A stretch of DNA of 64,000 nt. Origin: Candidatus Pacearchaeota archaeon (lineage in GTDB: Archaea > Nanobdellota > Nanobdellia > Pacearchaeales > GW2011-AR1). The notes beneath the pieces were generated by a model, which made no database searches, was not told where the DNA came from, and saw only the letters and a list, made by a program, of their open reading frames with translations. Every line of letters begins with the position of its first letter. Position 1 is the first letter of the stretch. The translations under genes and the position numbers were made by a program. This document shows positions 10,441-45,140 of the stretch, piece after piece. The stretch lies in assembly GCA_018303755.1 (NCBI GenBank), contig JAGVXO010000007.1, positions 295 to 64,294 of the forward strand, in the 5' to 3' direction.

Positions 10441-10565
10441 ATTGGAATTTATGTATATCACAAAACCCTTTGAGTATACTCCACACTAAAGTGTGGAGTT
10501 TGTGTTTGGGTTTTGGGAGAACCGGGAAAAATCTATACATTTTAACTCCAATCTATGAACAAAGG
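10441..10565 (-). repeat. repeat D (double-hairpin element), copy 3, 5'-truncated
   Basis: reverse complement matches copies 1 and 2 from agattggagttaaaatgtatagatttttcccggttctcccaaaaccc...ctccacactttagtgtggag (perfect 9-bp stem). Confidence 0.75.
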
Positions 10566-10656
10566 TAAAATAAGGAAAAGTTATAGGGTGTTAGAAGAAT
10601 TAAATATCCTTAATCCTTCTAAGAATGTTTAAAAACATCCTTGTCTTTTTGAGGCT

Positions 10657-11856
10657 ATGGTCCAAAGGAAAATTCTGAAAAACGGAATGACTGTGCTTTT
10701 TAAGAAGAAAAGAGGAGGAGTTGTAAGTGTTGCTTTTGCTGTTAGAAACGGCGGAAGAAATGAGGTTGCTAAGGAAAAAGGAATATCTCATTTTATTGAG
10801 CATATGCTTTACAAAGGTACGCCAAAAAGGAACAGCATGCAGATTTCAGCAGAGATTGAGAAAAATGGAGGGGAGCTAAACGGATTTACGAGCGAGAGGA
10901 TGACGGCTTTCTGGTGCAAGATGCCGAGCAGGCATATTAAGGTTGCTCTTGATGTTTTAAGTGATATGGTGAAAAATCCGCTTTTTGATGAAAATGAATT
11001 GAATAAAGAGCGGAAGGTTATTTTTGAAGAAATGAAATTATACCACGATACACCAAGCAGGTATACTGCTGAAAAAATAAAATCTTTGATGTATAGAGGA
11101 GATTTTTCAGTTCCAATCATAGGCACAGAAAGCTCAATGAATTCTATTTCCAGAAAAAAACTTACTGAATTCTTTAAAAAAGTTTATGCCAGCGAGAACA
11201 TGATTCTTTGTGTTGTCGGAGATACAGATTTTAGAAAAGTATGCAGTTTTGCAGAAAATAATTTTATCAAAAAAAGCGGGAAAGTTGCAAAGCCAAAAAT
11301 AATCCTTTCAAATAGTAAACAAATAGAGAGAAGAAATGGAATTGACCAGGCGAATCTTGTTTTTGCCCACCATATTCCTCTTCCAAATAAAAAAGGATAT
11401 TATTCTGCACAGGTATTGAATATGATTATGGCCGGCGGCATGTCTTCAAGGCTTTTTTCAGAAATACGCGAGAAAAGAAATCTTGCATATTCTATAAGAG
11501 GAGAGACAGATTCAGAGGGAGAGTATGCTTATAGTCTTATTGCTGTTGGAACTCCTCCAGAAAATGTTCAAAAAATTGAAAGGCTGATAGTTGAAGAGTT
11601 TAAGAAAGTCTCTGAAAAGCTTTCAGAAAAAGAGCTGTCAGAAGTTAAGGAGCAAATTATCGGGAATTATCTGATTTATCAGGAAGATTCTTTTAATGTT
11701 CTTGCAAATTTGCTTATGGAAGAGATAAAAGGGAATGCGCTTAATGCTGAGAAGTTCATTGACAATATAAAGAAAGTGAAACTAAGTGAAGTTAAAAAAC
11801 TTGCAAAAATTAAAAAATATAGTTTTTTTGCGCTTGTGCCTGATAAGCACAAGTAA
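10657..11856 (+). CDS. M16 (pitrilysin/insulinase) family zinc peptidase
   Basis: inverted zinc motif HFIEH (HxxEH) near the N-terminus; about 400 aa, consistent with two M16 domains. Confidence 0.75.
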   Translation: MVQRKILKNGMTVLFKKKRGGVVSVAFAVRNGGRNEVAKEKGISHFIEHMLYKGTPKRNSMQISAEIEKNGGELNGFTSERMTAFWCKMPSRHIKVALDVLSDMVKNPLFDENELNKERKVIFEEMKLYHDTPSRYTAEKIKSLMYRGDFSVPIIGTESSMNSISRKKLTEFFKKVYASENMILCVVGDTDFRKVCSFAENNFIKKSGKVAKPKIILSNSKQIERRNGIDQANLVFAHHIPLPNKKGYYSAQVLNMIMAGGMSSRLFSEIREKRNLAYSIRGETDSEGEYAYSLIAVGTPPENVQKIERLIVEEFKKVSEKLSEKELSEVKEQIIGNYLIYQEDSFNVLANLLMEEIKGNALNAEKFIDNIKKVKLSEVKKLAKIKKYSFFALVPDKHK

Positions 11857-11914
11857 ATTTGTCCTATTTTTAATGAACCAAAAGGTTTAAACTTGTTCTT
11901 GTATATGTGCTTCT

Positions 11915-12154
11915 ATGGCAATTAAGAATATCTCTATAACTAAAGAGGCATATAGCAGGCCTGCTCGTCTTAAAAAGAACAAGGAACGTTTTTCAGAAAT
12001 TATAGTAAAGATTACCCGAAAAACGAGATTAGAAGATTTTTTTGGAATTTTGTCTAAAGATGCAGGCAGAAAATTAGGAGAGAATATACTTTTTTTAAAA
12101 ACAGAAAGAATAAGAGAATATCAAAAACGACACAAGAAATATAATTCATTTTGA
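11915..12154 (+). CDS. small basic protein, function unknown
   Basis: 79-aa Lys/Arg-rich ORF. Confidence 0.2.
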   Translation: MAIKNISITKEAYSRPARLKKNKERFSEIIVKITRKTRLEDFFGILSKDAGRKLGENILFLKTERIREYQKRHKKYNSF

Positions 12155-12192
12155 GAAAATAAACGGATTAAAAATTGAAGGATATTAAATAT

Positions 12193-12561
12193 TCATTTAT
12201 TCGCATCAGTCAATCCGATTATTCCACCAATTAATGCAAGGATTCCTATAATATTTCCGATTCCAATTACTCCTATGATTATTGCCCAGATTGCGCCGTT
12301 TCTGGCAGTTTTGGCATTAAGCATTTTTCTTGATGAAATCAGCAGAATACATCCGATAAGAATGATTACTAGAGAAATTAATATGCCCAAGATAAATATG
12401 GCTATTGGAAGAAAGGGATGAGAAACTTCTGCATTCGGAAGTTTTCTTATATAATTAATAAATAATGAAATTACCAGGGCTACAAAGAGAACTATTCCTG
12501 CAATTACAAAATTAATAATTGCAGCGATTTTTGTCAGCGAAGCACCTGTTTCGCTTTTCAT
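12193..12561 (-). CDS. small integral membrane protein
   Basis: three to four hydrophobic helices, Gly/Ile-rich. Confidence 0.3.
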   Translation of the reverse strand: MKSETGASLTKIAAIINFVIAGIVLFVALVISLFINYIRKLPNAEVSHPFLPIAIFILGILISLVIILIGCILLISSRKMLNAKTARNGAIWAIIIGVIGIGNIIGILALIGGIIGLTDANK

Positions 12562-12611
12562 AAATAGGTTAATAAACAGAAGTTTATAAATTCTTTTAAT
12601 TTGAATTTAAG

Positions 12612-13427
12612 ATGATGTTGGTTAAAATTCCTATTGAAAGCAGTAAAGAATCTGCTGGATGCAGAGAGGCGGGAAATGCAGTTATTTCCCAGATACCTGC
12701 AAATTATTCAAATGAGACTGGCAAAAATTTTTCCAAATTTGATTTAAATATTGAAGAAATCCACTTAGATAATTCAAAACTTAAACAGGCGCATGCGCTT
12801 ATTTATGAAAATTCTATTGAGCTGATAGAAACAAATAAAAAAGTGGTTTTTCTCGGAGGAGACCACTCACTGACTTTTTCAACTGCTCTTGCATTTAAAG
12901 AGGTTTGTGATAATGAAAACAAGCAGAATAGAGAGGATAAAGAGCCATTTTTAATTATTTTTGACGCCCATGCTGATTGCGAAGAGTATTCGGGCATTCC
13001 GAACAGCAGGCAGTGGCTTAGAGCCTTAATTGAAAAAGGGTTTAATGCAGAGAAAATTATCTTAGCAGGATTTAGAACCGGAGATTCTGAAGAAATAGCT
13101 TTTTTAAAAAGTGCAGGAGCCAGAATTTATGCAATGAAAGATATGAACGATTTTGAAGAATTATGCGATATTATTATGGAGCTTGCGAGAGAGAATAATA
13201 TTTATCTTTCAATTGATATTGATGCTGCTGATGCTGTTTTTGTTCCAGGCACGGCTCATCCCGAAAGCGCAGGACTTACTTCAAGACAGCTCGTTTATTT
13301 TGTGCAAAGGATTAGTATGCTTAAAAATCTGAGAGTTGTTGATATTACTGAGATTAATCCTAAGAAAGATATAAAAGAAGCAACGGTTAAATTTGGAGCA
13401 AAAATCGCAATTGAGGTTTTAAATTGA
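12612..13427 (+). CDS. ureohydrolase (agmatinase/arginase family)
   Basis: GGDHSLT, DAHAD and SIDIDAAD manganese-binding motifs of the arginase fold. Confidence 0.7.
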   Translation: MMLVKIPIESSKESAGCREAGNAVISQIPANYSNETGKNFSKFDLNIEEIHLDNSKLKQAHALIYENSIELIETNKKVVFLGGDHSLTFSTALAFKEVCDNENKQNREDKEPFLIIFDAHADCEEYSGIPNSRQWLRALIEKGFNAEKIILAGFRTGDSEEIAFLKSAGARIYAMKDMNDFEELCDIIMELARENNIYLSIDIDAADAVFVPGTAHPESAGLTSRQLVYFVQRISMLKNLRVVDITEINPKKDIKEATVKFGAKIAIEVLN

Positions 13428-13963
13428 GGGCGTTTATATCCCTCGAACTTCCCGAAAATATAAAAAAAGAAATTGTAAAAATACAGAAATATATTGAGAA
13501 ACTTGGGATTTTAAAAGGAAAATACACTGAAGAGGAAAATTTGCATCTTACTTTAAAATTTTTGGGAGAGATTGATGAAAAAGAAGCTGAAAGAGCGGCA
13601 AATCTTTTGAAAAATGTTAAATTCAAAAAGTTTAAGAGTAAATTAGGGCTTTTGGGAGTTTTTTCAGAACAGGAGATTAGAATTGTTTGGATCGAACTCA
13701 AAGGAGAAGGAATTTTGGAATTGCAGAAACAGATAGATGATGTGTTATCTCCTATGTTTCCTAGAGAAGAAAGATTTATGCCCCATATTACAGTAATAAG
13801 GCCGAAGTATGTTGAAAACAGAAGAGTTTTTTTGGATAAGTTAAAAGAGATAAAATTTGAAAAATCAGAGTTTGAGGCAGATAGTTTCTGTTTTAAAAAA
13901 TCTGAACTCAATAAAAAAGGCGCAGTTTATTCAGATTTTGGTGTGTTTAAAACTACAGATTGA
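13424..13963 (+). CDS. thpR: 2'-5' RNA ligase / 2H phosphoesterase (LigT/ThpR)
   Basis: two H-x-T/S-x motifs (HLTLKF and HITVIR) at the spacing typical of LigT. Confidence 0.7.
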   Translation: MRAFISLELPENIKKEIVKIQKYIEKLGILKGKYTEEENLHLTLKFLGEIDEKEAERAANLLKNVKFKKFKSKLGLLGVFSEQEIRIVWIELKGEGILELQKQIDDVLSPMFPREERFMPHITVIRPKYVENRRVFLDKLKEIKFEKSEFEADSFCFKKSELNKKGAVYSDFGVFKTTD

Positions 13964-14329
13964 AAAATATAATTAATAAAGAATTTCTTGATTTATAAGT
14001 TTATTGGAATTTAATAAATATTTTCTACTGCATATTATTTTTTATACTCCTACTATTTTTAATTATTTTAATGTTTTGTTGTGATAATGCAAACCTTTTA
14101 AGGAGTTTAAATCACGAAGGATATGATTGCAGGGGATTTGTTTTTTATGGGGGTTCTGCTGAAATCCGTCAGCAGTTTGAATCTGAAATGAGAAAACAAC
14201 TTGCTGGAAGAGAATCAGAATATGTTGTTTTATGCTCTGAAGTCCGTCCATTTGATTACCTTATTAAATGGTTTAATCCTAAGGAACCAAAAAATCCCGG
14301 TGTAATGGGGGTTGATGTTGGTTATTTTA

Positions 14330-15037: not shown

Positions 15038-15084
15038 TTTTTTAAGAAGGGTTATGCCTTTTTATCTTTAACTGCACTTTTTAT

Positions 15085-15350
15085 TTTTTAAACATCCCCA
15101 TAACTTTTCCTTATTTTACATCTTTTCATTAAAGTTTTCTTTTTTATTTAATATCTCATTAAAAATCATAAAGTCTAATGAACAAATGGACGACAGATTT
15201 GCAGAATTAGATAAGTGAGCGGAGCGAACCAAATTAAGGCGAGCCCGAATGGGCGAGCCGATAATTCCATTATTCAAATAAAAAATCACAACCGAAATAT
15301 TTATAACTCCCCCCCTTAAATTGTTAATCTTGCTTTCATAACGATAAAGC
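15085..15350 (+). repeat. composite intergenic repeat R1 (AT block + GCGAGC block + conserved promoter-like leader)
   Basis: near-identical to 29700-29960 and related to 11+ other copies; contains gtgagcggagcgaaccaaattaaggcgagcccgaatgggcgagc. Confidence 0.8.
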
Positions 15351-15385
15351 AGGAATTTTAAAATTGAGTGAAAGGAGGTGATAAA

Positions 15386-16540
15386 ATGAAAAGCAAAGAA
15401 TGGGTTGGAGTGATTGCTGTTGTTGCAGTTGCGTTTGCAATTGCTTGGGTTTCTGCGAATTTAGATGTTTTAACTAATTCAGGAATACTGCAAAGCCCGC
15501 CTTCTGGTAATGATATAAATGTGACTCCGAGAGAGAATCAGACATATTCCTTTATTATGGGGGGAGATAGGTATGATTATAGATTTGGGATGAATAGTGT
15601 TAAGATTCCATATAGTATTGACTTGTCTATTAATGATCCTTTTGCTCAGGAATCCTTTATGAAAAGATTATCTTTTGCAGGGAATGATACTAATAATTTG
15701 AGTTATGCTTATTTTGGATTCCAAAAGATAATAATAAAGGCAAATCTTGTAAAAGTTCATGATACTTGGGCGAAGAAATGGTTTGTTAATTTAACCTTTA
15801 AAGATGCAACAAATGATCCGAATGCACCTTATACGAAAATTGATGGATGTAATCGTATAGATGAAGTAATCATTGATAAAACTCAGGAGCTTACTGATAA
15901 AGGAAGGATTGTTGTGATAGAAGAAATGAGCCCGGTATATTACGGGAATTACTTTATTGCTCCTGGAGATACTAATGGAACTGACGCAGGGATATATAAA
16001 ATAACTACACTTTCAAACTCTTCTACAGAATTCCATTTAGTGCTTACTGATGTGTTTGACACAGCAAATACTTTTGAGGTTACTGACTCTACTGGAGATG
16101 GAATTGCAAGTATCTATATAATGGGAAAACAATATGAGGTTTACTATGCATTTACTTCCTCAACCCTTCCAATTGAAAGGGCTGTTAAATTTGATTTTTC
16201 GCAAACAATAGGACATCAGATTATGGATTTCAGCAAGTGTGCTAATGCACAAGAGAATTATGTTGGTGTTTTGAAAATGTTGAATGAGTGCGATTTAAGA
16301 TTCGTAGACGATTCTTTTTTTAGAAATCAAACGGCTCACATTTCTTGCGATCAAAAATGCCGAGAATCTGGTCAAGTATGTACTGAAGCATATGGTTATC
16401 TATTTAATGGGACAGATGAAGATTCAGAAGATTTTAGAGTAATAACTACTAGGGTTCTTTGTCAGGCACAGGCTTCATCTTCTGATGTTCTGGGTGGGTA
16501 TCCTTTTTTAGAATTAATGTGCAACTGCTGTGGAGATTAA
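15386..16540 (+). CDS. secreted Cys-rich protein (paralog of 30025..30831 at the 5' end)
   Basis: perfect SD AAGGAGGTGA 4 nt upstream of ATG 15386 (track used GTG 15368); signal peptide ...AFAIAWVSA; C-terminal 9-Cys module. Confidence 0.5.
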   Translation: MKSKEWVGVIAVVAVAFAIAWVSANLDVLTNSGILQSPPSGNDINVTPRENQTYSFIMGGDRYDYRFGMNSVKIPYSIDLSINDPFAQESFMKRLSFAGNDTNNLSYAYFGFQKIIIKANLVKVHDTWAKKWFVNLTFKDATNDPNAPYTKIDGCNRIDEVIIDKTQELTDKGRIVVIEEMSPVYYGNYFIAPGDTNGTDAGIYKITTLSNSSTEFHLVLTDVFDTANTFEVTDSTGDGIASIYIMGKQYEVYYAFTSSTLPIERAVKFDFSQTIGHQIMDFSKCANAQENYVGVLKMLNECDLRFVDDSFFRNQTAHISCDQKCRESGQVCTEAYGYLFNGTDEDSEDFRVITTRVLCQAQASSSDVLGGYPFLELMCNCCGD

Positions 16541-16616
16541 TTAATCTTTAATTTTTATTTTTCTTCTTTTCTTTTTTATTCAATCAGCTTCTGCTGTGCG
16601 TCTTTTTCTCTTTTTT

Positions 16617-19600
16617 TTATATTAATTTTTTTTGTATTTCTTCTTCATCTTTTTTATTTTCGTCTGCGCTTTTTCCTTCACTTTCTATTTCTTCATCCTG
16701 CGCTTTTGCATTAAATGTTCCGTCCTGCATTTCCTGTTTTATTGAGCTTATGGCGTTGTGCATTCTTTTTTCCTTGTGATAAGCGGCCCAGTAATATGCT
16801 TCGTCTCTTGTGTCTTTTGTTATAAGCATTATCAACTCTCCTGGCATTAATCTTGCTGTTCTTCCTGCTCTCTGAATTTTTCTTATTGCGCTTGGAACTG
16901 GCTCGTAAAAAATAACTGTATCAACTTCAGGTATATCAAGCCCCTCTTCTCCTATCTGGGTGCTGACTAAGACATTGAATTTTCCGTCGGAAAAGTCAGA
17001 GATTATTTCTCTTTGCTCTTTTTGGCTTAGTCCTGTATCTCCTTTTTTTGCCTGCCCTACAAAAACTTTTGCACTTGCATTTTCAATCGAATTAATTTCC
17101 TTGCATATTTTTGTCACGCTGTCACGATACTGCGAAAAAACAATTATTTTCGGGTTTTTGATTGAGCTTATTTTTGATTCTATAATTGCTTTTAGCTGAA
17201 GAAGTTTCGGATGCTCTAAATTTTCATTTATCATCTGCTTTATTTTTTCATATGCAATTGTAAAATCAGGATTGCTGACAAGCTTTTTTACAGCTCTGCT
17301 TTTATTCTGCCTTGCCTGTTCATTCAGAGATTCAATATAATTATTTAATCCATAAAGTGTTTGGGTTTCAAGAAGTTCAATTGCATGTCCGATTTTTATT
17401 GCCTGTGCGCATAATGACGCTCCATAGAACAAATTAAAATTTTTACTTCCTCTTGAAATCATAGCCATTATTCTTTTCTGGCAGTCTAACAAAGCGATTT
17501 TGTTTGCGGGCCCATTAAGGATATTTTTTTCTTTAAGCGAATTTATGTTTTTATCATAAATGTTTTTCAAATGAACTTTAATTTCTTTGAATTTTTGCGG
17601 AAATTCCACTTTTATTGTGTTTATGTCAAGTTCCTGCAAATATTCTTTCAAGTCTTCGCTTTCTCGTGTTCTTATTTCAACTTCTTCAATATTCAGATTT
17701 TCACAAATGAGTTTTATTGACTTTTTGTCTGCGCCAGGCGAGGCAGTAAGTCCCAAAATCCTCGCATTTTTCGCCTGCTCGATATACTTTTTCGCAACAT
17801 AAGTGTAGCTGTAATTTTTCACGCATTTATGCGCTTCGTCTTCTATAAGCAGAGAAACTCCTTCTAAATCATATAGTTTTTTCTTTAAATCATTGGCAAT
17901 GCAATTATGGTTTACTAAATAATTTGCTATAAAATTATGGTGTTTATCAACGCTTAAATCATACACTTCTCTTTTTTCTCGACACCCTCTTTTTTCTTTA
18001 ATCTTCACCCACCTTATTGGAAGGTTGAGAAGTTCTTTCAATTTATTGGCACTTTCTCCCTCTAAACAAGAGGATAGCTTTTTTAAATTATCCAAGGACA
18101 GGCAACTAAATTTATAATATTCTGCTTTGCTCATATTAGACTTATGAATTTTTTTCATTAATTCTGGAATAGGCAGTATTTCTTTTGAGCGTGTTTCTGG
18201 TCTTTTTGTATTGTTTAAGGTTTCTATTAGTTTTTTACATTTTTCTTTGTTTGGAGAGGACTCAAGAAATTTTTTTAAATTCAGCCTTCCTGTGAATTTG
18301 AATGTAAAAATTTCAGATTCTTTTAAATGTCTTCCATTTATCGTTCCATGAGATTTTGTTTTTTCAATATTGCCAAGAATGCCTATTCTTAAAAATAGCC
18401 ACTTTAGTCCCTGCACAAATTTTTCGCTTACACTGGATATTGATACTCCGTATTTTGATGCATGGCCATCTGTGTCAAATATTCCTTTGATAAATCCATT
18501 TATAGAATCTTTATCTGCGAAAAATAAAAATTTTGGAATTTCAATTCTTCTTGCTTTTTTTCCTTTTGGGATTCCAAGATGCGAGAAGAAATGTGCGAGA
18601 GCAGAGTTATAAGCAATAAGCCCTTTAGTTTTATCTTTCTTCATTTCAATTCCAAAAACTTCTTTAACTGCCTCTTTAAATTCTTGAGAGATTGATTCTC
18701 TTTCTAATTCTGAGAGGACCACTTCAGACCCATGACCTATCCTATCTCCAATATGTCCATCACCAAACATCGCACCTAAGATATATGCTAATTTATTGTC
18801 TAACTTTTTAGGGAGCTTTATTGGAGAACTTTTTCCGCAGCTATCTGTAAGTGTCAATAAGCTATAATCAAAATCTATTTTTTTTGATAGTTCTAGGAAA
18901 AGTTTTATGGGCATGAAGTTATAAAAATATCTTGAATAAGGCGAGGTTTTAATTTTCTTCTCTTTTAACTTCTTTATTAAGTCTTTTGTAAGAGCAGTAT
19001 CTGCTATTTTTAAACATTCACTCGAAGAGAGGAGATTTAAAATGTCGAGATTTTTTTCTTCTATATCTATCTTCTTTGAAGATGCAATGTAATCTCCTTT
19101 ATTTAGGCTTGACGCTTCCTTCCAAATTAATTCTCCACATGGGCTTATTGTTAAAAGAGGGTGGTCTTTTGTACACAAGAGGGTATTTCCTATTTCGGTT
19201 TTTATATTAATTACTTCTTCGGTTGTCCTTTTCCATGCTTTTGTTGCCTTTAAGAAATCAATTTTTTGCCCATTGTAACCCAGAATTTTTTCATTTATCT
19301 CAGCGACTTCTATTTTTCCATTTAGATAGTTCTTTTCTTCGAAATTAAATTGTTTGAAGAAATCTGAAATTTTTATCGGACCTTCTCCAGTGAATATTAA
19401 TGTTCCGCCATCAATGCACTGCGGAGTTGAAAATATAATGTCTGTTCTCTGCCATATTTTTTTTCTTTTTTCTGCATCAACTTTTCCTGTAAAAAGCTCC
19501 ATTTGAGCAAACAGCTCTGGAAGATATTTTTTAAAATAAGCAATATGCTGTTCTGCGAGCGGGCGTGTTGGAGCAAGAAAAAGAATTTTCTCCTCTGGAA

Positions 19601-19760
19601 ATTTCTGCATCCTATGTATTGTGAGAAGCAATGCAACAAGAGTTTTTCCTATGCCTGTAGGCAGGACTACTAAACAGTTTTTTTCTTTGCATTTTTCAAA
19701 TATCTTTTTTTGATATTCTCTTGGATTTATATCTTTTAAAAATTTCTCTTCTGGCATCAT
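16617..19760 (-). CDS. Hef/RIG-I-like SF2 helicase (nuclease-less) containing one LAGLIDADG intein
   Basis: motifs PTGIGKT, FSTPQ, (intein), EDEAHK, LTASPG, QRAGRTAR; extein about 540 aa plus intein about 505 aa. Confidence 0.8.
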   Translation of the reverse strand: MMPEEKFLKDINPREYQKKIFEKCKEKNCLVVLPTGIGKTLVALLLTIHRMQKFPEEKILFLAPTRPLAEQHIAYFKKYLPELFAQMELFTGKVDAEKRKKIWQRTDIIFSTPQCIDGGTLIFTGEGPIKISDFFKQFNFEEKNYLNGKIEVAEINEKILGYNGQKIDFLKATKAWKRTTEEVINIKTEIGNTLLCTKDHPLLTISPCGELIWKEASSLNKGDYIASSKKIDIEEKNLDILNLLSSSECLKIADTALTKDLIKKLKEKKIKTSPYSRYFYNFMPIKLFLELSKKIDFDYSLLTLTDSCGKSSPIKLPKKLDNKLAYILGAMFGDGHIGDRIGHGSEVVLSELERESISQEFKEAVKEVFGIEMKKDKTKGLIAYNSALAHFFSHLGIPKGKKARRIEIPKFLFFADKDSINGFIKGIFDTDGHASKYGVSISSVSEKFVQGLKWLFLRIGILGNIEKTKSHGTINGRHLKESEIFTFKFTGRLNLKKFLESSPNKEKCKKLIETLNNTKRPETRSKEILPIPELMKKIHKSNMSKAEYYKFSCLSLDNLKKLSSCLEGESANKLKELLNLPIRWVKIKEKRGCREKREVYDLSVDKHHNFIANYLVNHNCIANDLKKKLYDLEGVSLLIEDEAHKCVKNYSYTYVAKKYIEQAKNARILGLTASPGADKKSIKLICENLNIEEVEIRTRESEDLKEYLQELDINTIKVEFPQKFKEIKVHLKNIYDKNINSLKEKNILNGPANKIALLDCQKRIMAMISRGSKNFNLFYGASLCAQAIKIGHAIELLETQTLYGLNNYIESLNEQARQNKSRAVKKLVSNPDFTIAYEKIKQMINENLEHPKLLQLKAIIESKISSIKNPKIIVFSQYRDSVTKICKEINSIENASAKVFVGQAKKGDTGLSQKEQREIISDFSDGKFNVLVSTQIGEEGLDIPEVDTVIFYEPVPSAIRKIQRAGRTARLMPGELIMLITKDTRDEAYYWAAYHKEKRMHNAISSIKQEMQDGTFNAKAQDEEIESEGKSADENKKDEEEIQKKLI
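17904..19418 (-). other. intein in helicase (between FSTPQ and CIANDL)
   Basis: starts with Cys (CIDGGTL), ends HN followed by +1 Cys; internal LAGLIDADG blocks (LAYILGAMFGDGH, DKDSINGFIKGIFDTDGH). Confidence 0.75.
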
Positions 19761-19776
19761 TTTAAGGATTAGAAAA

Positions 19777-20852: not shown

Positions 20853-20887
20853 GTTGAAATTTATATAATATAAACAAAAAGGGGAAA

Positions 20888-22352: not shown

Positions 22353-22367
22353 GGATTATAAACAGAG

Positions 22368-25790: not shown

Positions 25791-25796
25791 ATTTTT

Positions 25797-25925
25797 AATA
25801 CTCGTGAAAAATCTCCAATCTTTAGATTGGAGTTAAAGTGTATAGATTTTTCCCGGTTCTCCCAAAACCCAAACACAAACTTCACACTTTAGTGTAGAGT
25901 ATCCTCAAATGGTTTTGTGATTAAA
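25797..25925 (+). repeat. repeat D (125-bp double-hairpin element), copy 1
   Basis: about 95% identical to 45017-45140; hairpins ctccaatctttagattggag and cttcacactttagtgtagag. Confidence 0.8.
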
Positions 25926-26023
25926 CAGATATTAAATAAGAGAAAGTTATTAGATGTTAGAGAATAAGCTACTTTAATCATATTTAGCATCACAGAAAAC
26001 TATTTTAATCGTCTTTTGGTTTT

Positions 26024-28292: not shown

Positions 28293-28470
28293 TTTTAAAC
28301 ATCCCATAATTTTGCCTTATTTTTACATCTTTTCATTGAAGTCTTCTTTTTTATTTAATATCCCATTAAAAATCATAAAGTCTAATGAACAAATAGACGA
28401 CAGATTTGCAGAATAAAACAAGCGCGAAGCGCACTAATGTCGTTATTAATGTGAGCGAGCGAAAGATTTA
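28293..28470 (+). repeat. composite intergenic repeat R1
   Basis: aaacatcccataattttgccttatttttacatcttttcat...gacagatttgcagaataaaacaagcgcgaagcgcac...gtgagcgagcgaaag. Confidence 0.75.
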
Positions 28471-28489
28471 AATATCCATATACTTCTAT

Positions 28490-29095
28490 ATGATAAGGTG
28501 TATAAATATGTATGAAAATAAATATAAAAATGAGCCTCTTACGAGATTAGAAGATTTAGATATTCTTTTAAATCTTTTGGCAGATTTAAATGAGCCGTTG
28601 GAATTGTTTGCAATAGGAGGAACTGCAATGGTTTTAAAAAGAATTAAAGAATCTACAAAGGATATAGATTTTTTGACTGCTGAAAAATATGAGAAAATTA
28701 AAAAGCTATTTACTTTAGCAGGTTTAAAAGAAGAAAGTTCTAATAAACTTTGTAACATTTGGAAATTAGGCAATATTCGGATAGATATTTTTTATGATGG
28801 TTTTATTATGGGCATAAGATTTCCTGATGATTGGAGAAAGTTATCTGAAAAAGTAAAAGAAATTGGAAAAATTAAGCTATATATTCTTAATTGGTATGAT
28901 TTGATTATCACGAAAATTTCAAGGGCTGAGAAAAGAGATATTGAAGATATAATTGCAATAATAAAAAGCCAAAAGTTAGATTTTGGTTTTTTGAAAAAGA
29001 GATATTATTCTTTTGCCGAAACTGCACTTATTTCAGATTTTGATTATAAATTTAAACATTTGGAAAGGGAATATGCCAAGCGCAAAATTGATTAA
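28490..29095 (+). CDS. nucleotidyltransferase, paralog N2
   Basis: LFAIGGTAMVLK...DIDFLT NTase motif; same architecture as 23625 and 43554. Confidence 0.5.
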   Translation: MIRCINMYENKYKNEPLTRLEDLDILLNLLADLNEPLELFAIGGTAMVLKRIKESTKDIDFLTAEKYEKIKKLFTLAGLKEESSNKLCNIWKLGNIRIDIFYDGFIMGIRFPDDWRKLSEKVKEIGKIKLYILNWYDLIITKISRAEKRDIEDIIAIIKSQKLDFGFLKKRYYSFAETALISDFDYKFKHLEREYAKRKID

Positions 29096-29693
29096 GGCAC
29101 TTGAAAAAGAAGGCTTTTTTTTGGAGTTTCCAGAATATTATTCAAATGAAGAAATTGTTTTTGAGATATTAAAGGAGGACAATCCGAGAATAACTCTCTG
29201 CCTGCCGCTTTTTTTAAGAAAAGGAATAGATTACAAAACGATTTCCTCGAAATTAAATCCCAAAAAGAAAAAAGAATTAAATAGGGCAATTGCTATCAGT
29301 GATAAAATCTACAAAAAAGAAAAAATTGAGAATACTCTTTCAGGCATTATAAAACAAAATAGAATAAAAGTAAACTTCTCAGAACAGGAATTCAAAGAGT
29401 TTTATGATTCTTTTAAAGAGAGTCGAGCAAGATTAAAAGAAAATGAACAAAAAATTATTGAAAAGCAGTCTAAACTGCGGCTTAATCTTGATTTAAACAA
29501 ATGCATGTCTGTTTTATTTTCTCCAGCAAAGATAAAAATAATGGAGAAAATATTCAATCATAAACTGCTTACGAATACAGAATTAAAGTATTATTATAAA
29601 TCCATTTCAAATATAAACAAGGCAGTTTTAAATCCAAATTTGCAGGATTATTTAAGGATAATTGAGATTACGAAGAAGATTGCGGAGAAATGA
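29013..29693 (+). CDS. hypothetical protein, downstream partner of NTase N2
   Basis: overlaps the NTase gene 3' end; Lys-rich helical protein. Confidence 0.3.
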   Translation: MPKLHLFQILIINLNIWKGNMPSAKLIKALEKEGFFLEFPEYYSNEEIVFEILKEDNPRITLCLPLFLRKGIDYKTISSKLNPKKKKELNRAIAISDKIYKKEKIENTLSGIIKQNRIKVNFSEQEFKEFYDSFKESRARLKENEQKIIEKQSKLRLNLDLNKCMSVLFSPAKIKIMEKIFNHKLLTNTELKYYYKSISNINKAVLNPNLQDYLRIIEITKKIAEK

Positions 29694-29699
29694 GCGAGC

Positions 29700-29960
29700 T
29701 AAATTAATTATTCTAACATCCTATAATTTTGCCTTATTTTAAGTTTGTTCATTGGTGCTTTTTATTTATTGATTTAAAACATAATGTAAATTCCAATCTG
29801 CTCACGGGTTTAGGATTTACAAAATAAATAAGTGAGCGAAGCGAACCAAAATTGTGGGGCGAGCCCGCAGGGCGAGCCGATAATTCCATTATTCAAATAA
29901 AAAATCACAACCGAAATATTTATAACTCCCCCCCCCTTGGATTGTTAATCTTTCAATAAG
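29700..29960 (+). repeat. composite intergenic repeat R1 with promoter-like leader (9-C tract)
   Basis: taagtgagcgaagcgaaccaaaattgtggggcgagcccgcagggcgagccgataattccattattcaaataaaaaatcacaaccgaaatatttataactccccccccc. Confidence 0.8.
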
Positions 29961-30024
29961 TTTTTAACACGAAAAAGAAAGATTGAACTAAAATAAAAAA
30001 TAGTGATTGAAAGGAGGTGATAAA

Positions 30025-30831
30025 ATGAATAGAAATTTAGTGATTGGACTTTCTGTTACTTTAGTTGCTGTTTTAATTGCAGGAAGCTTGAGCGGATGGT
30101 TTGGATTGACTGGAAACGTAATTTGGGGAAGTTCTCCCTATGCTGATAAGATTGCAAAATTAGGGAAAACATATACTCTAAATTTAGAAGGGAGTAGTCA
30201 TACATTTTTAGTTACCGATTATCAGAGAGAAAATTCTACTTCTGTAGGGTTTATCTGGTTAAATGTGGATGGAGAACTAAAAAAGGTAAGTTATGGGACA
30301 TCTGCTGTTAGATTTTGGGATAATATTGACGTGCAGATTTTACAGTTTTACAATTGGGCAGGAAGTTTTGTTCAAATAAGGTTTTTTTATCTTTACCCTG
30401 AATATACTGATATGAATGATTGTAGGTGGGAATATAATACTTATGATAATGAGTATCTCCCAGAATCTCGGGCGGTAATTTGCAGATATGGTGAAGAAGT
30501 ATTAGTCTCAACCGAATTTGTCACTTGTGATACTCCAAGGTTGGTTGAAACATGGAACTATTGGTGGCCTGGATTTAAAGGTGCACCAACCTTTGGAAGA
30601 GGGTATACTTGTTATGACTCTTCTTCAAATACTGTTTTTAAGCCAGGGTATGTATCTGGAGTATGTTGTAAAGTAAGAAGTACAAATGGATCTCCAGGAG
30701 TAATCTCTTCATTGAAGTCTGGTGCTGAAAATGGAGAAATCTTGGCAAAGGTAAATCAATTGACTTCAGATAATAAAATAATAGAAAGAGATTTAACTTC
30801 TGAAGAAATAGAAGTGACTTTATCTGCTTAA
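30025..30831 (+). CDS. secreted protein (5' paralog of 15386..16540)
   Basis: identical SD and leader; N-terminal hydrophobic signal; Cys, Trp and Tyr-rich. Confidence 0.45.
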   Translation: MNRNLVIGLSVTLVAVLIAGSLSGWFGLTGNVIWGSSPYADKIAKLGKTYTLNLEGSSHTFLVTDYQRENSTSVGFIWLNVDGELKKVSYGTSAVRFWDNIDVQILQFYNWAGSFVQIRFFYLYPEYTDMNDCRWEYNTYDNEYLPESRAVICRYGEEVLVSTEFVTCDTPRLVETWNYWWPGFKGAPTFGRGYTCYDSSSNTVFKPGYVSGVCCKVRSTNGSPGVISSLKSGAENGEILAKVNQLTSDNKIIERDLTSEEIEVTLSA

Positions 30832-36976: not shown

Positions 36977-37000
36977 TTATAAATTTTAATTTGTTGTGAA

Positions 37001-39099: not shown

Positions 39100-39159
39100 G
39101 ATTTATAAATAGGTTGAGAAACATTTATAAATATAATCCCACTTAATAAATAATAAAAG

Positions 39160-39660: not shown

Positions 39661-39860
39661 AATTTTAAAATAACTTTAAAAACAATCTTTTCTTTAATAT
39701 TAAAATGTCAGACGACTACGGCTTTGAAGGAAAGAGAACAACAAAAAAGGATTTGAAGAGAAAGCGCAAGGCGCGAGTGTATAAAAGAGGTGGGCAGAAT
39801 AGGGTTGATGAAAAGAGATGGTGATTTTTGGGATATTGCTTTTTTATAATTCTTTTATTC

Positions 39861-40838: not shown

Positions 40839-40899
40839 TTCTGCCTCTTTATAATTCTAATTTAAAAACATTAATAAAGCTTTTTGTTTAGGTTATAAT

Positions 40900-41763
40900 A
40901 TGGATATGTTTTTGGCAGTGCTTGGAATTGTGTGGATAGCTGCTGCAGTGATTCAGGACTTGAAATCACGCGAAGTTGCAAACTGGATAAATTTCAGCTT
41001 AGTTATTTTTGCACTTGCATACAGGTCATTTTACTGGATTTTTTCAGGAGAGCAGATGTTTTTTTTGTCTGGAATTTTAGGACTTGCAATTTTTTTTATA
41101 GTAGCACATCTCTTTTATTATCTTCGGCTTTTTGCAGGAGGAGATGCAAAATTGCTGATTGCGCTTGGGGCAATTCTTCCCACAGCAGGAGGATATTATG
41201 AAAATGCGCTGATAATGCTGTTTTTTATTCTTGTGCTTCTTGCAGGAGGGGGGGTATATTCGTTCTGTTACAGCATTCTTCTTTCTTTTATTTCGTGGAA
41301 TAAATTTTTAAAAGAATTCAAGGTTCAGGTAAGAAAGAATGCATTTTATTTGGTGATTGCTGCGATTGTTTCTGCAGTTCTTGCAACTTTTTCTATGTTT
41401 AGCGGAGATTTTGTTTCTGCTCTTGCCTCTGTTTTAATAATTCTTATTTCTGCACTTTATGTTTATGTAAAAGCAGTTGAAAGTGCGTGCCTTATTTATG
41501 AAGTTTCTCCTGATAAACTTTCTGAAGGTGATTGGCTGGCATCTGAATTGATTGTTAAAGGAAGAAAAATAAACCCTTTCTGGGAAGGAATTAGTCAAGA
41601 AGAAATAGAGTTTATTAAAAAGAATTATAAAAGCAAGGTAAAGATAAAAGGAGGAGTTCCATTTACTCCTGCATTTTTGATTGCATTTATTGCAGTTCTT
41701 TATGTAAGTTATTTTGTTGGTTTTGATTTTATGCTTGAAAGGCTGATGAGGTTTATTGCATAA
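40900..41763 (+). CDS. prepilin/prearchaellin peptidase (A24 family, PibD/FlaK-like)
   Basis: first catalytic Asp in TM1 context (AAVIQDLKSREVANWIN) and second in the AGGDAKLLIALG (GxGD-like) motif; polytopic. Confidence 0.65.
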   Translation: MDMFLAVLGIVWIAAAVIQDLKSREVANWINFSLVIFALAYRSFYWIFSGEQMFFLSGILGLAIFFIVAHLFYYLRLFAGGDAKLLIALGAILPTAGGYYENALIMLFFILVLLAGGGVYSFCYSILLSFISWNKFLKEFKVQVRKNAFYLVIAAIVSAVLATFSMFSGDFVSALASVLIILISALYVYVKAVESACLIYEVSPDKLSEGDWLASELIVKGRKINPFWEGISQEEIEFIKKNYKSKVKIKGGVPFTPAFLIAFIAVLYVSYFVGFDFMLERLMRFIA

Positions 41764-41799
41764 ATGCCCGCTCTGCTCATTCATCATTATTATTTCTTA

Positions 41800-41960
41800 A
41801 ATTTTACTCCATGAGAACATTGGGTATTCATATATTTTAATTCATATTAAAAATAAAGAGGATATAAAAGATAAACACCAATGAACAAACTTAAAATTAG
41901 GGAAAAGAATGGAGTGATAGCAAAATGTTGTTCATTTGCCTATGGCAGAAAGCAATAAGT
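41800..41960 (-). repeat. composite intergenic repeat R1 (minus orientation, partial)
   Basis: reverse complement: attttgctatcactccattcttttccctaattttaagtttgttcattggtgtttatcttt. Confidence 0.55.
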
Positions 41961-41989
41961 TTATAAATAGTCCGTACTAAGTACATACT

Positions 41990-42745
41990 ATGAAATTCGT
42001 GCATAAAGTGTCAAAAGGAAGCAGGTTTAATCAGATATACATTCCAAAAGAATTTGAAAATCATTTTGAAGTCGGAGATTTGGTGCAGGTGGAATTGCTG
42101 GAAAAAAATACAAAACTTTATTATTCTAAAAAAATAGAATTAAGTAGTTTTAAAAAAAGAATTATCCAAGAAATATTCAGTTGCCTTAACAACTTAAAAT
42201 CTATAAGCCAGATATTTGTTTTTGGCTCTTTTATTACAAAAAAAGCAGATTATAATGACATTGATCTTATAATCATTTCCGACATAATAACTGAAAAACA
42301 GGTTTATACCCTGCTATTGGAAAAATTAGAATTGAAATTCCACATTTTAATGATTCCAGAATCTAAATTAAAAGAACTTGAAAAAATATGTCCTTTGACA
42401 AGAAGTATGCTGTATTACAGCATTTCAAACAAGCCATTTTTCCTGGAAAAAGAGAGGGTTATTGACAAAAACCACATAAATTTTCTTTTAATGATGCCAG
42501 AAGATATACTTAAACTTAATGTAGATGGAAAAACAATTTACAATGCTCTAAGAAGATTAGAAACAATAGAGAATTTTCTTAATAACAAAGAAGAAAATCC
42601 TAGAAAAATAGAAAAAGATGTAGAAAAATTAATAGGAGAGAAAATATCATGCAAATTAAAAGAAAACACTCCTCTTGCACAAGAAGAAACAAAAAGATTA
42701 AATGAGATTATCAAATCCAAATTAGTAAAAATCAGGAAAAAATAA
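41990..42745 (+). CDS. nucleotidyltransferase (Pol-beta superfamily)
   Basis: IFVFGSFITKKADYNDIDLIIIS = GSx9-11 DxD motif. Confidence 0.55.
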   Translation: MKFVHKVSKGSRFNQIYIPKEFENHFEVGDLVQVELLEKNTKLYYSKKIELSSFKKRIIQEIFSCLNNLKSISQIFVFGSFITKKADYNDIDLIIISDIITEKQVYTLLLEKLELKFHILMIPESKLKELEKICPLTRSMLYYSISNKPFFLEKERVIDKNHINFLLMMPEDILKLNVDGKTIYNALRRLETIENFLNNKEENPRKIEKDVEKLIGEKISCKLKENTPLAQEETKRLNEIIKSKLVKIRKK

Positions 42746-42746
42746 A

Positions 42747-43061
42747 ATGAGCAAAAAAGACAAAATCAGCGAACTGACAAATATACTTTCAAAAGCATTG
42801 AGGCATAGAATTGGAAGCATAGTAAATGAACATGAAATTTACGCAGAAAGATATTCTAAAGATTCAGATACTCTGATAAAATCCGCCCAAGATATCTCTT
42901 TAGGAGAAAACTGGAGCATCTATGACAAGGCAGAAATAAAAACACTATTAAAGAAAAAACTCCAAAAAGAACTTGAAGAAAAAGAATTCATAAATGAAAA
43001 AAAGTTTAAGATTTTAGACAAAGAACTGGAAAAAGTGCTTCTCTTCTTAGAACTAAATTAA
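42747..43061 (+). CDS. small helical protein, downstream partner of NTase (possible HEPN-like)
   Basis: start 2 nt after the NTase stop; weak R-x7-H segment (RHRIGSIVNEH). Confidence 0.3.
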   Translation: MSKKDKISELTNILSKALRHRIGSIVNEHEIYAERYSKDSDTLIKSAQDISLGENWSIYDKAEIKTLLKKKLQKELEEKEFINEKKFKILDKELEKVLLFLELN

Positions 43062-43062
43062 T

Positions 43063-43341
43063 TTATTTTCCGGTTCTTCTAAATCCTACAACCTTCTTTC
43101 CCTGATAAATCGGAAGTTCAACAAGTTTTCCTCCTGAACTTCTTAAAGCACTCACGCCGAAAATTACAAAGGCAACTCCAATAACAATAAAATATACTCC
43201 ATGAATATTCATCAAAGGCAAAAATGCTGAAACTGCTTCTTTAATAGGCGCAACACTTAAAGCCATAAAAAATATTCCAATTGCACTTAAAAAATAACCT
43301 AATGTTCTTGACATTTTCACCTCAATACTAAATAATCGCAA
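43063..43341 (-). CDS. small 2-3 TM membrane protein
   Basis: hydrophobic helices. Confidence 0.3.
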   Translation of the reverse strand: MRLFSIEVKMSRTLGYFLSAIGIFFMALSVAPIKEAVSAFLPLMNIHGVYFIVIGVAFVIFGVSALRSSGGKLVELPIYQGKKVVGFRRTGK

Positions 43342-43348
43342 TTAGAAT

Positions 43349-43552
43349 TTATAAATCTTGTCCCATCTTCATCTCTTTAATTTTCAGAAGAGTTTGCCTG
43401 CCTTTTTCTGTTTTCATAAGTTCAGAATAAAATCTCCGTGCCATTATAATTTGCGCATCTAAAAATGGCTTTAATTTGCTCTTCCATTTTTCAGGATTTT
43501 CTCTGATATAATTTGCCCATCTTTCAATTTGTTCTGAATGTTCCTCACGCAT
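43349..43552 (-). CDS. small helical protein, downstream partner of NTase N3
   Basis: abuts the stop of 43554..44120. Confidence 0.25.
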   Translation of the reverse strand: MREEHSEQIERWANYIRENPEKWKSKLKPFLDAQIIMARRFYSELMKTEKGRQTLLKIKEMKMGQDL

Positions 43553-43553
43553 T

Positions 43554-44120
43554 TTATCTCCTCATTTTAATCATTTTTATTTTATCTTTTATTTTTTCTA
43601 TTTCTTCTAAATTAAGCTTGTCTTTATAAATAATTCTTAAATGCTTTGCATCTTCCATATCCTTATCTGATTTTAAATACTCTTCTTTAAAGGCAATATT
43701 CATTTCAATAGACGAAAAATAAACATTCAACCCTGTAAAAGGCAGTTTAACCCGAGTTTTAATCTGGTAGTCATCTAATTCATCTTTTACAAACTTAATT
43801 TCCATTTCAGGAAGGAATTCTCCTTTTTTTGTATACCTCACACTGGTTTTATGCAACAAATAATCCATGTAGATAATTTGAGGATTTTCAGACTGCATGC
43901 ATTCAAATCCATGTTCTATCAAATCATTATGCAACTCCTCAAATCTTTTTTCATCAATTTTTTCAATAATCATGTCTATATCTTCTGTTCCTCTGCTTCT
44001 TCCATGCGCAATTGCAACAAAACCAGACACAATGATATACCTGCAGTGCTTTTCTACAATTTTTGTAAAATCTTCTGCAAATTCCTCTAAAATCGTTCTG
44101 TCTTTGATTCCTCTCTCCAT
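43554..44120 (-). CDS. nucleotidyltransferase, paralog N3
   Basis: IIVSGFVAIAHGRSRGTEDIDMIIE NTase motif; architecture shared with 23625 and 28490. Confidence 0.5.
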   Translation of the reverse strand: MERGIKDRTILEEFAEDFTKIVEKHCRYIIVSGFVAIAHGRSRGTEDIDMIIEKIDEKRFEELHNDLIEHGFECMQSENPQIIYMDYLLHKTSVRYTKKGEFLPEMEIKFVKDELDDYQIKTRVKLPFTGLNVYFSSIEMNIAFKEEYLKSDKDMEDAKHLRIIYKDKLNLEEIEKIKDKIKMIKMRR

Positions 44121-44179
44121 TATACGGTATATCTCCAGGACTATATAATAATTTCTATAAACTCAAGCATCCTTAATAT

Positions 44180-44350
44180 GACTGATATCAGTTTTCTTCT
44201 TTAAACACTCGTAACTTTCTCACATTCATTATCTTTTCAAGGGTTTTCTTTTTTGATTGAATTTGTTTAATGTTAAATTAAAACATATAAAACCAATCTG
44301 CCCACAACGCCAGATTTCAAAAATAATAAAACAGGTACGAAGCGCACAAA
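44180..44350 (+). repeat. composite intergenic repeat R1
   Basis: tttaaacactcgtaactttctcacattcattatcttttcaa...aaccaatctgcccacaacgccagatttcaaaaataataaaacaggtacgaagcgcac. Confidence 0.6.
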
Positions 44351-44382
44351 AGTATTAAATACTCCAAAAACGGGAAATATCA

Positions 44383-45015
44383 ATGAGCAGTTTAAGAAAA
44401 GAACAGCTGAAACAGGCAAGAGAAGCGCTTTTAAAGCAGATTGAAAGCTGGAAAGGAGATCAGGAAGGCGCAAGAGAGCAGATTAATTCTTTATCAGATG
44501 AAGAGCTTGAAAGCTTTTTGATTAAAAATAAGATTATAAAACTGCCTTATGGCGAATCTGAAAATTCTGCAGAATCAAAAAGTCCGTTCAGAATGATTGT
44601 AGAAGGAAAAATTAAGAGTTATAAAATTTCAGAAAATGACAGTGCACTTGCAGTTCTTGAAATAAATCCTGTTTCAAAAGGGCACACAATTATAATTCAA
44701 AAATCGCCGTCTGAAGAAATCTTAGAGGGAACAGAAACTCTTGTAAAAGAAACTGCAGACAAATTAAAATACACGCTAAACTGCAGAAGAGTTGATGTTG
44801 CAGTTCAGGATGTTCTGGGAGAAAGAATAATTAATTTAATTCCAGTTCATAATGAAGAAAATATAAACTCAGAAAGAAAAAAAGCAAGTGATAACGAACT
44901 TAAAGACGTGCAAAAACAAATTCTGGAGAAAAAAGCTGAGGAAAAAACAGAGAAAAAATCTGAAAAAGAAATTCCAATAGAAAAGCTTCCAAAAGCGCCG
45001 AGGAGGATTCCTTAA
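44383..45015 (+). CDS. HIT-like protein (degenerate histidine triad) with Lys/Glu-rich tail
   Basis: SALAVLEINPVSKGHTIIIQK resembles the HIT N-terminal block; the canonical HxHxHxx triad is not intact (NLIPVHNEE). Confidence 0.35.
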   Translation: MSSLRKEQLKQAREALLKQIESWKGDQEGAREQINSLSDEELESFLIKNKIIKLPYGESENSAESKSPFRMIVEGKIKSYKISENDSALAVLEINPVSKGHTIIIQKSPSEEILEGTETLVKETADKLKYTLNCRRVDVAVQDVLGERIINLIPVHNEENINSERKKASDNELKDVQKQILEKKAEEKTEKKSEKEIPIEKLPKAPRRIP

Positions 45016-45016
45016 T

Positions 45017-45140
45017 ACTCGTGAAAAATCTCCAATCTTTAGATTGGAGTTAAAATGTATAGATTTTTCCCGGTTATCCCAAAACCCAAGCACAAACCCC
45101 ACACTTTAGTGTGGAGTATACTCAAAGGGTTTTGTGATTT
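45017..45140 (+). repeat. repeat D (double-hairpin element), copy 2
   Basis: perfect 9-bp stem ctccaatct-tt-agattggag (45030-45049) and ccccacact-tt-agtgtggag (45097-45116). Confidence 0.8.

Follow-up and report, generated by a model that had tools for sequence, protein, structure and literature searches.

How does a short sequence that encodes nothing come to stand, almost unchanged, at unrelated places in an archaeal genome? The question is raised by a 64,000-nucleotide stretch of DNA from a Candidatus Pacearchaeota archaeon (assembly GCA_018303755.1, contig JAGVXO010000007.1, positions 295 to 64,294), here called the window, and by an element, repeat D, of which it holds three copies. The window is 32% GC and codes over about 87% of its length, 8.0 kb of the 64 kb being intergenic, and the archaeon belongs to the DPANN group, whose genomes are tiny and gene-dense and whose mobile DNA has been catalogued only poorly. 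Repeat D is a genuine dispersed non-coding repeat of 122 nt (ACTCG...GTGAT) in this uncultured groundwater organism. A preliminary description had considered a structured small RNA, paired recognition hairpins for a protein such as a transposase, or a terminator module. Because of the sharp ends, the T[T/G]AAT motif found on the left side only, and the similar hairpins on the same strand, the second of these options is favoured here. The explanation to which we lean, by a modest degree, is that D is a non-autonomous element of the palindrome-associated transposable element (PATE) type, i.e., a gene-less unit of fused IS200/IS605-type ends that is moved in trans by a Y1 HUH transposase.

Copies, hairpins and boundaries of repeat D

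All three window copies were recovered (Table 1). They were first reported at 25797 (copy 1), 45017 (copy 2) and 10441 (copy 3), and are mutually 94–98% identical, in keeping with the figure of about 95% given at the outset. The core 19-mer GTATAGATTTTTCCCGGTT occurs three times in the window and not once in 100 shuffles, and the hairpin pattern CTCCANNCT(2-5)AGNNTGGAG, with zero occurrences expected, is confined to D within the window. In the consensus, a distance of 13 nt separates hairpin 1 (CTCCAATCT-tt-AGATTGGAG) from the 5' end, and one of about 18–22 nt separates hairpin 2 (CTCCACACT-tt-AGTGTGGAG) from the 3' end; the two inner hairpins have 7 of 9 arm bases in common, an identical loop and the same strand. 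The description of two perfect 9-bp hairpins per copy thus holds for the consensus and, as regards hairpin 1, for both complete copies, but hairpin 2 is imperfect in copies 1 and 2. At 122 nt the element is too short for a transposase, and the open reading frames (ORFs) that cross it end in different flanks at each locus. A small protein read from D (ORF MYRFFPVLPKPKHK...) was rejected, as there is no stop inside D, the tail varies per locus and the start codon is GTG in one copy.

A scan of metagenome contigs returned 15 true copies of D, representing eight further distinct loci on aquifer contigs (L012; L013=L021=L026; L014=L018=L020; L019=L033; L024; L025=L028; L027; L011=L032), which together with the three in the window makes 11. 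The scan was not exhaustive, since a contig known to carry copy 2 was missed. Every copy is 93–100% identical to the consensus, and the loci, dispersed repeats aside, are syntenic neither with the window nor with one another. Proteins identical in sequence to those of the window are encoded on many groundwater metagenome contigs (PRJNA268031, PRJNA292723, JGI Ga0208245). Scans of IMG/VR for the left end and for the right end of D gave no match each, a degenerate hairpin scan of the same database gave 22 matches, judged to be at about chance level and none of them D-like, and blastn of D against phage and plasmid collections gave none; D resembles no known element, RNA family, phage or plasmid among those searched. 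Column 101 of alignment A3 (e.g., window position 45112), in the right arm of hairpin 2, is T, G or C depending on the copy, and differs between two assemblies of one locus (L033 and L019); this variation may reflect a mutational hot spot, or else difficulties in sequencing through the hairpin.

The boundaries were placed by aligning the copies of D together with 60-nt flanks. Similarity starts sharply at (T)TAATACTCG and stops just as sharply at TTTTGTGAT, with unrelated flanks at the 11 loci. The pentamer 5' of ACTCG is TTAAT at eight loci, TGAAT at two and CTAAT at one, so that T[T/G]AAT stands on the left flank in 10 of the 11, and no conservation is seen in the bases after GTGAT. The alignment of 13 copies with their flanks reveals no terminal inverted repeats (5' end, ACTCGTGAAAAAT; reverse complement of the 3' end, ATCACAAAACCC), and the 11 pairs of flanks show no direct repeats beyond a possible AT.

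The assignment of the leading TTAAT follows from sites that lack D. Paralogous D-free copies of the mosaic repeat R1 (described below) span the insertion point of copy 1 and of the copy in L012, and read ...AAATTTAAT|TAAAAGATG, also written ...AAATTTAAT|TAAAAGATGTAAAATAAGG, or ...TTTAAT|TAAAAGAT at the homologous place. Excision of ACTCG...GTGAT leaves the occupied loci collinear with these empty paralogues; excision of all 127 nt needs an extra 4-nt gap. Both loci with TGAAT (L024, and L045, which is the complete version of the copy 3 locus) are found at the homologous ...ATG(T)AAT|TTCAAT... place in R1, and TGAAT, like TTAAT, occurs at D-free paralogous R1 sites. In the relE remnant that copy 2 interrupts, the TTAAT provides, on the opposite strand, codons 66–67 (ATT AAg), and excision of exactly 122 nt gives ...GDYRALYK-IKE, where homologues have YK[ILV]KE. 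With ATTAA taken as fixed, we estimate that such a match in frame arises by chance in about 1 of 64 cases. Because the D-free R1 paralogues carry TTAAT and the relE frame is restored by a 122-nt excision, the leading TTAAT is most likely host sequence, i.e., target and not element. The length of D then becomes 122 nt instead of the 125 bp first given, and D appears to have been inserted 3' of T[T/G]AAT. Target duplication is undetectable, but a 2-nt duplication of AT may have taken place.

Two differences between assemblies involve the hairpins directly. L025 and L028 represent one locus and are 99.9% identical over 7.6 kb, but in L025 a stretch of 11 nt, CAAACACAAAC, has given way to TTTGAGTATAC, which is exactly complementary to the opposite flank and makes hairpin 2 a far longer, almost perfect stem. 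The patch has the appearance of an intramolecular template switch, or else may be an assembly or amplification artefact. As for copy 3, two other assemblies of its locus (L045 and L046) carry a complete D, and compared with these the window has a 67-nt deletion at the 10555/10556 junction, which spans from the R1 spacer into the hairpin 1 loop of D with 1 nt of microhomology. This copy had been described as lacking the first hairpin; the left arm and loop are indeed gone, but the right arm is kept and the loss is a strain-level event. Together, the template-switch patch and the deletion that ends in the loop of hairpin 1 argue that the hairpins of D act in DNA.

Routes of dispersal

D is read as a PATE because it has no inverted ends, similar palindromes at its two ends, a pentamer on the left flank, no target duplication, no coding capacity and homogeneous copies; the transposase, the active strand and the cleavage points we infer. 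Where D is single-stranded, such as at a replication fork, its top strand would fold into hairpin 1 at the left end and hairpin 2 at the right end. A Y1 HUH transposase (TnpA), encoded elsewhere in the genome, would bind both of these similar hairpins as a dimer and make cuts 3' of the TTAAT on the flank and 3' of the ...TGAT at the end of D, yielding a single-stranded circle that would be pasted 3' of another T[T/G]AAT without duplication of the target. The expected parent element would carry tnpA/tnpB between TTAAT|ACTCGTGAAAAATCTCCAATCT... and ...CTCCACACTTTAGTGTGGAG...GGGTTTTGTGAT|. Since the genome is 87% coding, intergenic DNA and dead genes such as relE would be the only places where copies persist. 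The homogeneity of D, compared with identities of 70–85% among the surrounding R1 modules, suggests that the spread is recent.

Several points weigh against this reading. Neither the 64-kb window nor the related contigs that were fetched yielded tnpA, tnpB or a full-length insertion sequence with D ends. Regular-expression scans of six-frame translations for the TnpA N-terminal motif of the Y-H-[ILV]-V-x-x-x-K-Y-R type and the TnpB RuvC-III motif of the D-x-N-A-A-x-N-I type gave no match, these scans being crude and covering part of the genome. The spacing from end to hairpin, 13 nt at the left end and 22 nt at the right end, is reversed relative to IS608 and to the published description of PATEs. 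A search with nhmmer and a D profile revealed no diverged copy and no isolated left or right end in the window and fetched loci. D is absent from 185,579 GTDB representative genomes, where an exact 19-mer scan gave eight chance matches with no similarity past the 19-mer, and this leaves no relative for comparison. TTAAT is frequent, with 540 occurrences on both strands of the window, as T-rich pentamers are common at 32% GC. Finally, neither an orthologous empty site nor a presence-absence polymorphism was seen: all 13 other fetched assemblies of the three window loci carry D, and the polymorphisms seen in D are solely the 67-nt deletion and the template-switch patch. A search for an empty site by way of relE homologues led to intact genes (the closest with 77–79% identity) in unrelated contexts without synteny. 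The mobility of D is accordingly deduced from paralogous comparisons alone.

D could instead have been mobilised or dispersed by a route other than an IS200/IS605 TnpA, i.e., by an unknown HUH enzyme or serine/tyrosine recombinase, by an IS110-like enzyme, or by retro-mobilisation through resident reverse transcriptases. We consider this unlikely, although the missing IS200/IS605 gene and the end-to-hairpin distances, which are unlike those of IS608, are in its favour. With respect to retro-mobilisation, one copy of D lies 98 nt downstream of a split reverse-transcriptase gene (L013/L021), but no such gene is near the other 10 loci, and D has no poly-A or other hallmark of a retro-element. An enzyme of the IS110 type is at odds with flanks that show a 5-nt motif on the left instead of a long two-sided target, and an IS110-type or bridge-RNA module was rejected for this conserved 5-nt motif combined with unrelated right flanks. 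The ends of D also seem to lack a GG core as in IS607, and its overall anatomy is that of a PATE. Three further candidates were dismissed: the neighbouring IS630 element as mobiliser (no shared ends and no TA duplication, TA following GTGAT in 2 of 11 loci), the template or variable repeat of a diversity-generating retroelement (DGR; copy differences are not adenine-specific, and 10 loci have no reverse transcriptase), and an attachment (att) site or short interspersed nuclear element (SINE) derived from a tRNA, as a tRNA/tmRNA scan found none.

On either strand, D folds into two long imperfect hairpins that fill nearly the whole unit, each domain being made up of an 8-bp outer stem, an internal loop and an inner hairpin of 8–9 bp. 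The predicted RNA fold has a free energy of -36 kcal/mol and a z-score of -4.5 (range -4.5 to -5.5 across strands); as single-stranded DNA, the top strand reaches -23.8 kcal/mol (z -5.6) and the bottom strand -27.3 kcal/mol (z -8.1). Such a fold on both strands, together with the near-invariance of the left 75 nt over 13 copies, a TTAAAAT box similar to the TATA-like core of R1 module A, T5 tracts, and an orientation towards the downstream gene in 6 of 11 copies, would suit a multi-copy small structured RNA gene or a cis-regulatory RNA module, the copies being held alike by selection. This is nevertheless improbable. The window has no match in Rfam 15 at gathering scores, and in a relaxed scan of one D copy the lowest E-value was 0.68, with bit scores far under the family cut-offs. 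None of 34 pairs shows compensatory changes across 13 copies (15 cells unpaired), although the divergence of D is too low for a fair covariation test, and such changes as are present weaken the stems instead of maintaining them: pairing is lost at pair 90-101 in 6 of 13 copies, hairpin 1 is disrupted in L032 by three G>A changes, three copies have an indel in hairpin 2, and the latter is broken in about half of the copies. Furthermore, the upstream flanks differ and provide no common promoter, the orientation with respect to neighbouring genes is about 50:50, and copies have been truncated or rewritten without being lost. The small-RNA proposal thus finds no support.

The probability is similarly low that D did not transpose, but was spread together with the R1 mosaic by segmental duplication, recombination or gene conversion. 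Several copies do lie in or beside R1 modules, copy 1 and the L012 copy share about 85 nt upstream, copy 3 and the L024 copy share about 55 nt downstream, and R1 copies mediate indels, as in L037, which is without 28356-29699. The distance between D and module A varies, however, from abutting to about 6–70 nt, on either side and in either orientation, and no R1 is found at the junction in at least three loci (copy 2, L020 and L028). The contrast in homogeneity between D and the R1 modules noted above also argues against a shared passive spread. D is within 70 nt of a strong module A at four loci and of weaker ones at up to four more. Because 31% of the intergenic bases of the window are within 70 nt of module A, random intergenic placement already accounts for an adjacency of about this order. 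The earlier statement that every copy abuts R1 is correct for two of them, whereas the 633-nt HIT gene stands in its entirety between copy 2 and its R1, and the association is close to chance.

Somewhat more doubtful still is a reading of D as a self-contained mobile nucleic acid of guide or scaffold type and not a passive relic, be it an orphan omega-RNA-like or other two-domain RNA used in trans by a TnpB/IscB-like or other nuclease, or a hairpin element moved by an HUH enzyme of a type undescribed in DPANN archaea. In the RNA version, transcription would run through the right end of D into the flank. On this reading, the left 75 nt would be nearly invariant on account of function and not of youth.

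Five of the 11 loci lie between convergent genes, three in divergent promoter regions, two between tandem genes and one antisense to both neighbours; six copies face the downstream gene and five do not. This inconsistency of context and orientation argues against a dedicated role as leader or terminator, and does not fit the terminator module of the preliminary description. Hairpins and T5 tracts on both strands, five copies with convergent neighbours and two copies that begin right at a stop codon would suit a bidirectional terminator or insulator between genes, but this is very improbable: D also lies in divergent promoter regions (copies 1 and 3, L033) or antisense to both neighbours (L032), a near-identical, sharp-ended 122-nt unit is unlike the way terminators evolve, and archaeal termination depends mainly on oligo-T without a need for hairpins.

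If D is indeed a PATE-type element, a family of at least 11 hairpin-ended members that target TTAAT would mean that single-strand ("peel and paste") transposition is active, or was so very recently, in a DPANN lineage, and a trans-acting HUH transposase would be predicted somewhere in the genome. D breaks metagenome assemblies, with several contigs ending inside or right beside it, and marks sites of strain-level rearrangement. It also lengthens ORFs spuriously, as with the relE tail and perhaps with the stop codon of the HIT gene. D seems to represent no new type of biology; elements of this kind are already well known, but hardly described in this host group.

Gene context and other features of the window

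All 11 loci are intergenic or within a dead gene, and the features that surround the window copies are given in Table 1. GC skew merely tracks gene orientation, and is uninformative on a replication-strand bias of D.

Table 1. Coordinates of repeat D and of features next to it in the window
Feature	Position	Strand	Remarks
D copy 1	25800..25921	+	Complete 122-nt element; 25795-25921 with preceding TTAAT
D copy 1, hairpin 1	25813-25832	+	Perfect
D copy 1, hairpin 2	25880-25899	+	Imperfect, CTTCACACT tt AGTGTAGAG
TTAAT at left boundary of copy 1	25795..25799	+	Putative target pentanucleotide, host sequence
D copy 2	45017..45138	+	Complete; 45012-45138 with preceding TTAAT
D copy 2, hairpin 1	45030-45049	+	Perfect
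D copy 2, hairpin 2	45097-45116	+	Single mismatch, CCCCACACT tt AGTGTGGAG
TTAAT target of copy 2 (putative)	45012..45016	+	Holds the TAA stop of the HIT-domain ORF (44383-45015)
D copy 3	10457..10555	-	5'-truncated in the window; keeps right arm of hairpin 1 (10546-10554)
D copy 3, hairpin 2	10479-10498	-	Perfect; only window copy with a perfect hairpin 2
R1 module A, probable promoter module	10551..10598	+	Abuts truncated copy 3; in L045, 27 nt from the complete D
Weak R1 module A	25922..25965	+	Directly 3' of copy 1, with D at its 5' edge; 81% over 42 nt to 57712-57753
R1 module A, examples	4838-4879(-), 15086-15142(-), 29711-29765(-), 41871-41924(+), 50517-50573(-), 57700-57751(+)
relE/parE toxin pseudogene	45106..45333	-	Interrupted by D after codon 65
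IS630-type element	45429..46437	+	Neighbour of copy 2; split HTH and DDE_3 ORFs

The mosaic R1 includes a module A (consensus ...AATGAACAAACTTAAAATAAGGAAAAGTTATGGGATGTTAG / AAAACACCAATGAACAAACTTAAAATAAGGAAAAGTTATGGGATGTTAGAA), of which the window has 16 copies. Module A is present in about one quarter of the intergenic regions, usually 50–120 nt upstream of a gene and with the orientation of that gene; it is likely to be a shared promoter module with a B recognition element (BRE) and TATA box. It is sometimes accompanied by a mini-ORF, MNKLKIRQNYRMLE*, and a second R1 module (GTGAGCGAAGCGAACC...GGCGAGCCC) lies about 100 nt away. The segment absent from L037, another assembly of the same locus, amounts to 1.3 kb with two genes, one of them encoding a DUF6036 nucleotidyltransferase, and its breakpoints fall in two copies of module A (28293-28349 and 29711-29765); the difference may be an R1-mediated indel or the gain of a cassette.

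The overlap of D with the 3' end of relE reported earlier is real, the last nine codons of the remnant (TKPFEYTPH*) being read from D. The remnant matches positions 2–72 of 89 of the ParE_toxin profile and is without the 20 C-terminal residues present in 86-aa homologues, of which the closest named ones are from metagenome-assembled genomes of Nanoarchaeota and Woesearchaeota. With D removed, relE loses similarity after YRALYKIKE (window 44990-45016 / 45139-45160), and the last codons of the HIT ORF (ATT CCT TAA) appear to be relE antisense sequence, suggesting a second, older deletion that would have fused relE to the 3' end of the HIT gene. As for the IS630-type element, the suggested link with D was not borne out: it has no similarity to the ends of D and is single-copy in the sequence examined. 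Its transposase is split into HTH and DDE_3 ORFs by a frameshift or programmed slippage, and the element occupies the place expected for the relE antitoxin gene.

The reverse-transcriptase gene upstream of one D copy (L013 2171-3315, reverse strand; L021 11719-12246) is split into two RVT_1 ORFs, and its N-terminus of the ...RDRIVHHAI... type looks DGR-like. The gene content of the window is archaeal, with a long RadA-like ORF, a T2SSE/FlaI-type ATPase and an aminoacyl-tRNA synthetase of class Ib, and related contigs also encode L15e and a TFS-like protein. The RadA-like ORF (57834-61832, forward strand, 1332 aa) and a helicase ORF (16617-19760, reverse strand, 1047 aa) are far longer than usual, and their LAGLIDADG-like stretches indicate that both are probably intein-bearing. 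A perfect 65-nt repeat that ends in a C7-8 tract (15251-15315 and 29870-29934) lies upstream of two paralogous genes for secreted proteins (15368-16540 and 30007-30831), and the upstream block is also present in L025 and L028. At 55312-55423, two tandem 55-nt units that are 82% identical and rich in GCTCGCGATTGCAC precede an EF-1-beta-like gene. Among the IMG/VR loci (L053, L056, L063, L071; L054, L068; L060, L065, L070, L074) a recurrent phage hairpin unrelated to D, CTCCAYCCTTTAGGGTGGAG, is found within longer conserved palindromic blocks, the block occurring in different contigs and twice in one contig of 262 kb.

Comparison with known mobile elements

Classical MITEs (miniature transposable elements with inverted repeats), such as those derived from IS630/Tc1, the Correia elements and the SM elements of Sulfolobus, are, like D, small, non-coding, intergenic, multi-copy and structured. 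They have terminal inverted repeats, however, and usually a target duplication (TA for IS630), and D has neither. A classical MITE was therefore rejected for D, which has no inverted ends, TA after GTGAT in 2 of 11 loci, and no similarity to the adjacent IS630. Repetitive extragenic palindromic (REP) sequences and REPINs, with their REP-associated tyrosine transposase (RAYT, or TnpA-REP), resemble D in being short, intergenic and hairpin-forming, and are thought to be handled by a domesticated Y1 HUH enzyme. REPs are G+C-rich, 20–40 nt long and have a conserved 5' tetranucleotide, and a REPIN is composed of two inverted REPs, whereas the hairpins of D are direct and part of a fixed-end 122-nt unit; no RAYT or Y1 motif was seen in the motif scan, and D was rejected as a member of this system.

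The "peel and paste" elements IS608 and ISDra2 are similar to D in having subterminal hairpins at both ends and on one strand, and in having neither target duplication nor inverted ends. The IS608 transposase TnpA acts on single-stranded DNA, where it binds the subterminal hairpins; insertion takes place 3' of a tetranucleotide, which is left outside the element (PMC3201880). The motif kept outside is TTAC in IS608 and TTGAT in ISDra2, and would be T[T/G]AAT for D. Unlike these elements, D encodes nothing, and its cleavage sites would lie 13 and 18–22 nt from the foot of the hairpin, compared with 19 nt on the left and 10 nt on the right from boundary to hairpin in IS608 (PMC3201880). Pairing between guide and cleavage site in the style of IS608 is non-canonical and not predictable from sequence alone.

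PATEs are defined by the absence of inverted terminal repeats, similar palindromes near the termini, no target duplication, no capacity for a transposase, and a targeting sequence of 4–6 nt (PMC3119063). D is unlike them in that the window and related contigs revealed no IS605-type transposon or tnpA/tnpB cognate to it, in that it resides in an AT-rich DPANN archaeon whose genome is very compact, and in that the hairpin is nearer the 5' end than the 3' end, while PATEs have been described with the longer hairpin distance at the 5' end (PMC3119063). The PATEs of Haloquadratum walsbyi and other haloarchaea, and the PATE-like elements of Geobacillus stearothermophilus, which are mobilised in trans (PMC10055086), are otherwise close in kind to D: they are gene-less, without terminal inverted repeats or target duplication, carry a similar palindrome near each terminus and have a short targeting oligonucleotide on the 5' flank. 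Their size ranges from about 50 to a few hundred nucleotides, within which the 122 nt of D falls, their families are homogeneous (>90% identity) as is that of D, and the core or partial deletions and insertions of one mobile element into another that are common among PATEs count as a further likeness.

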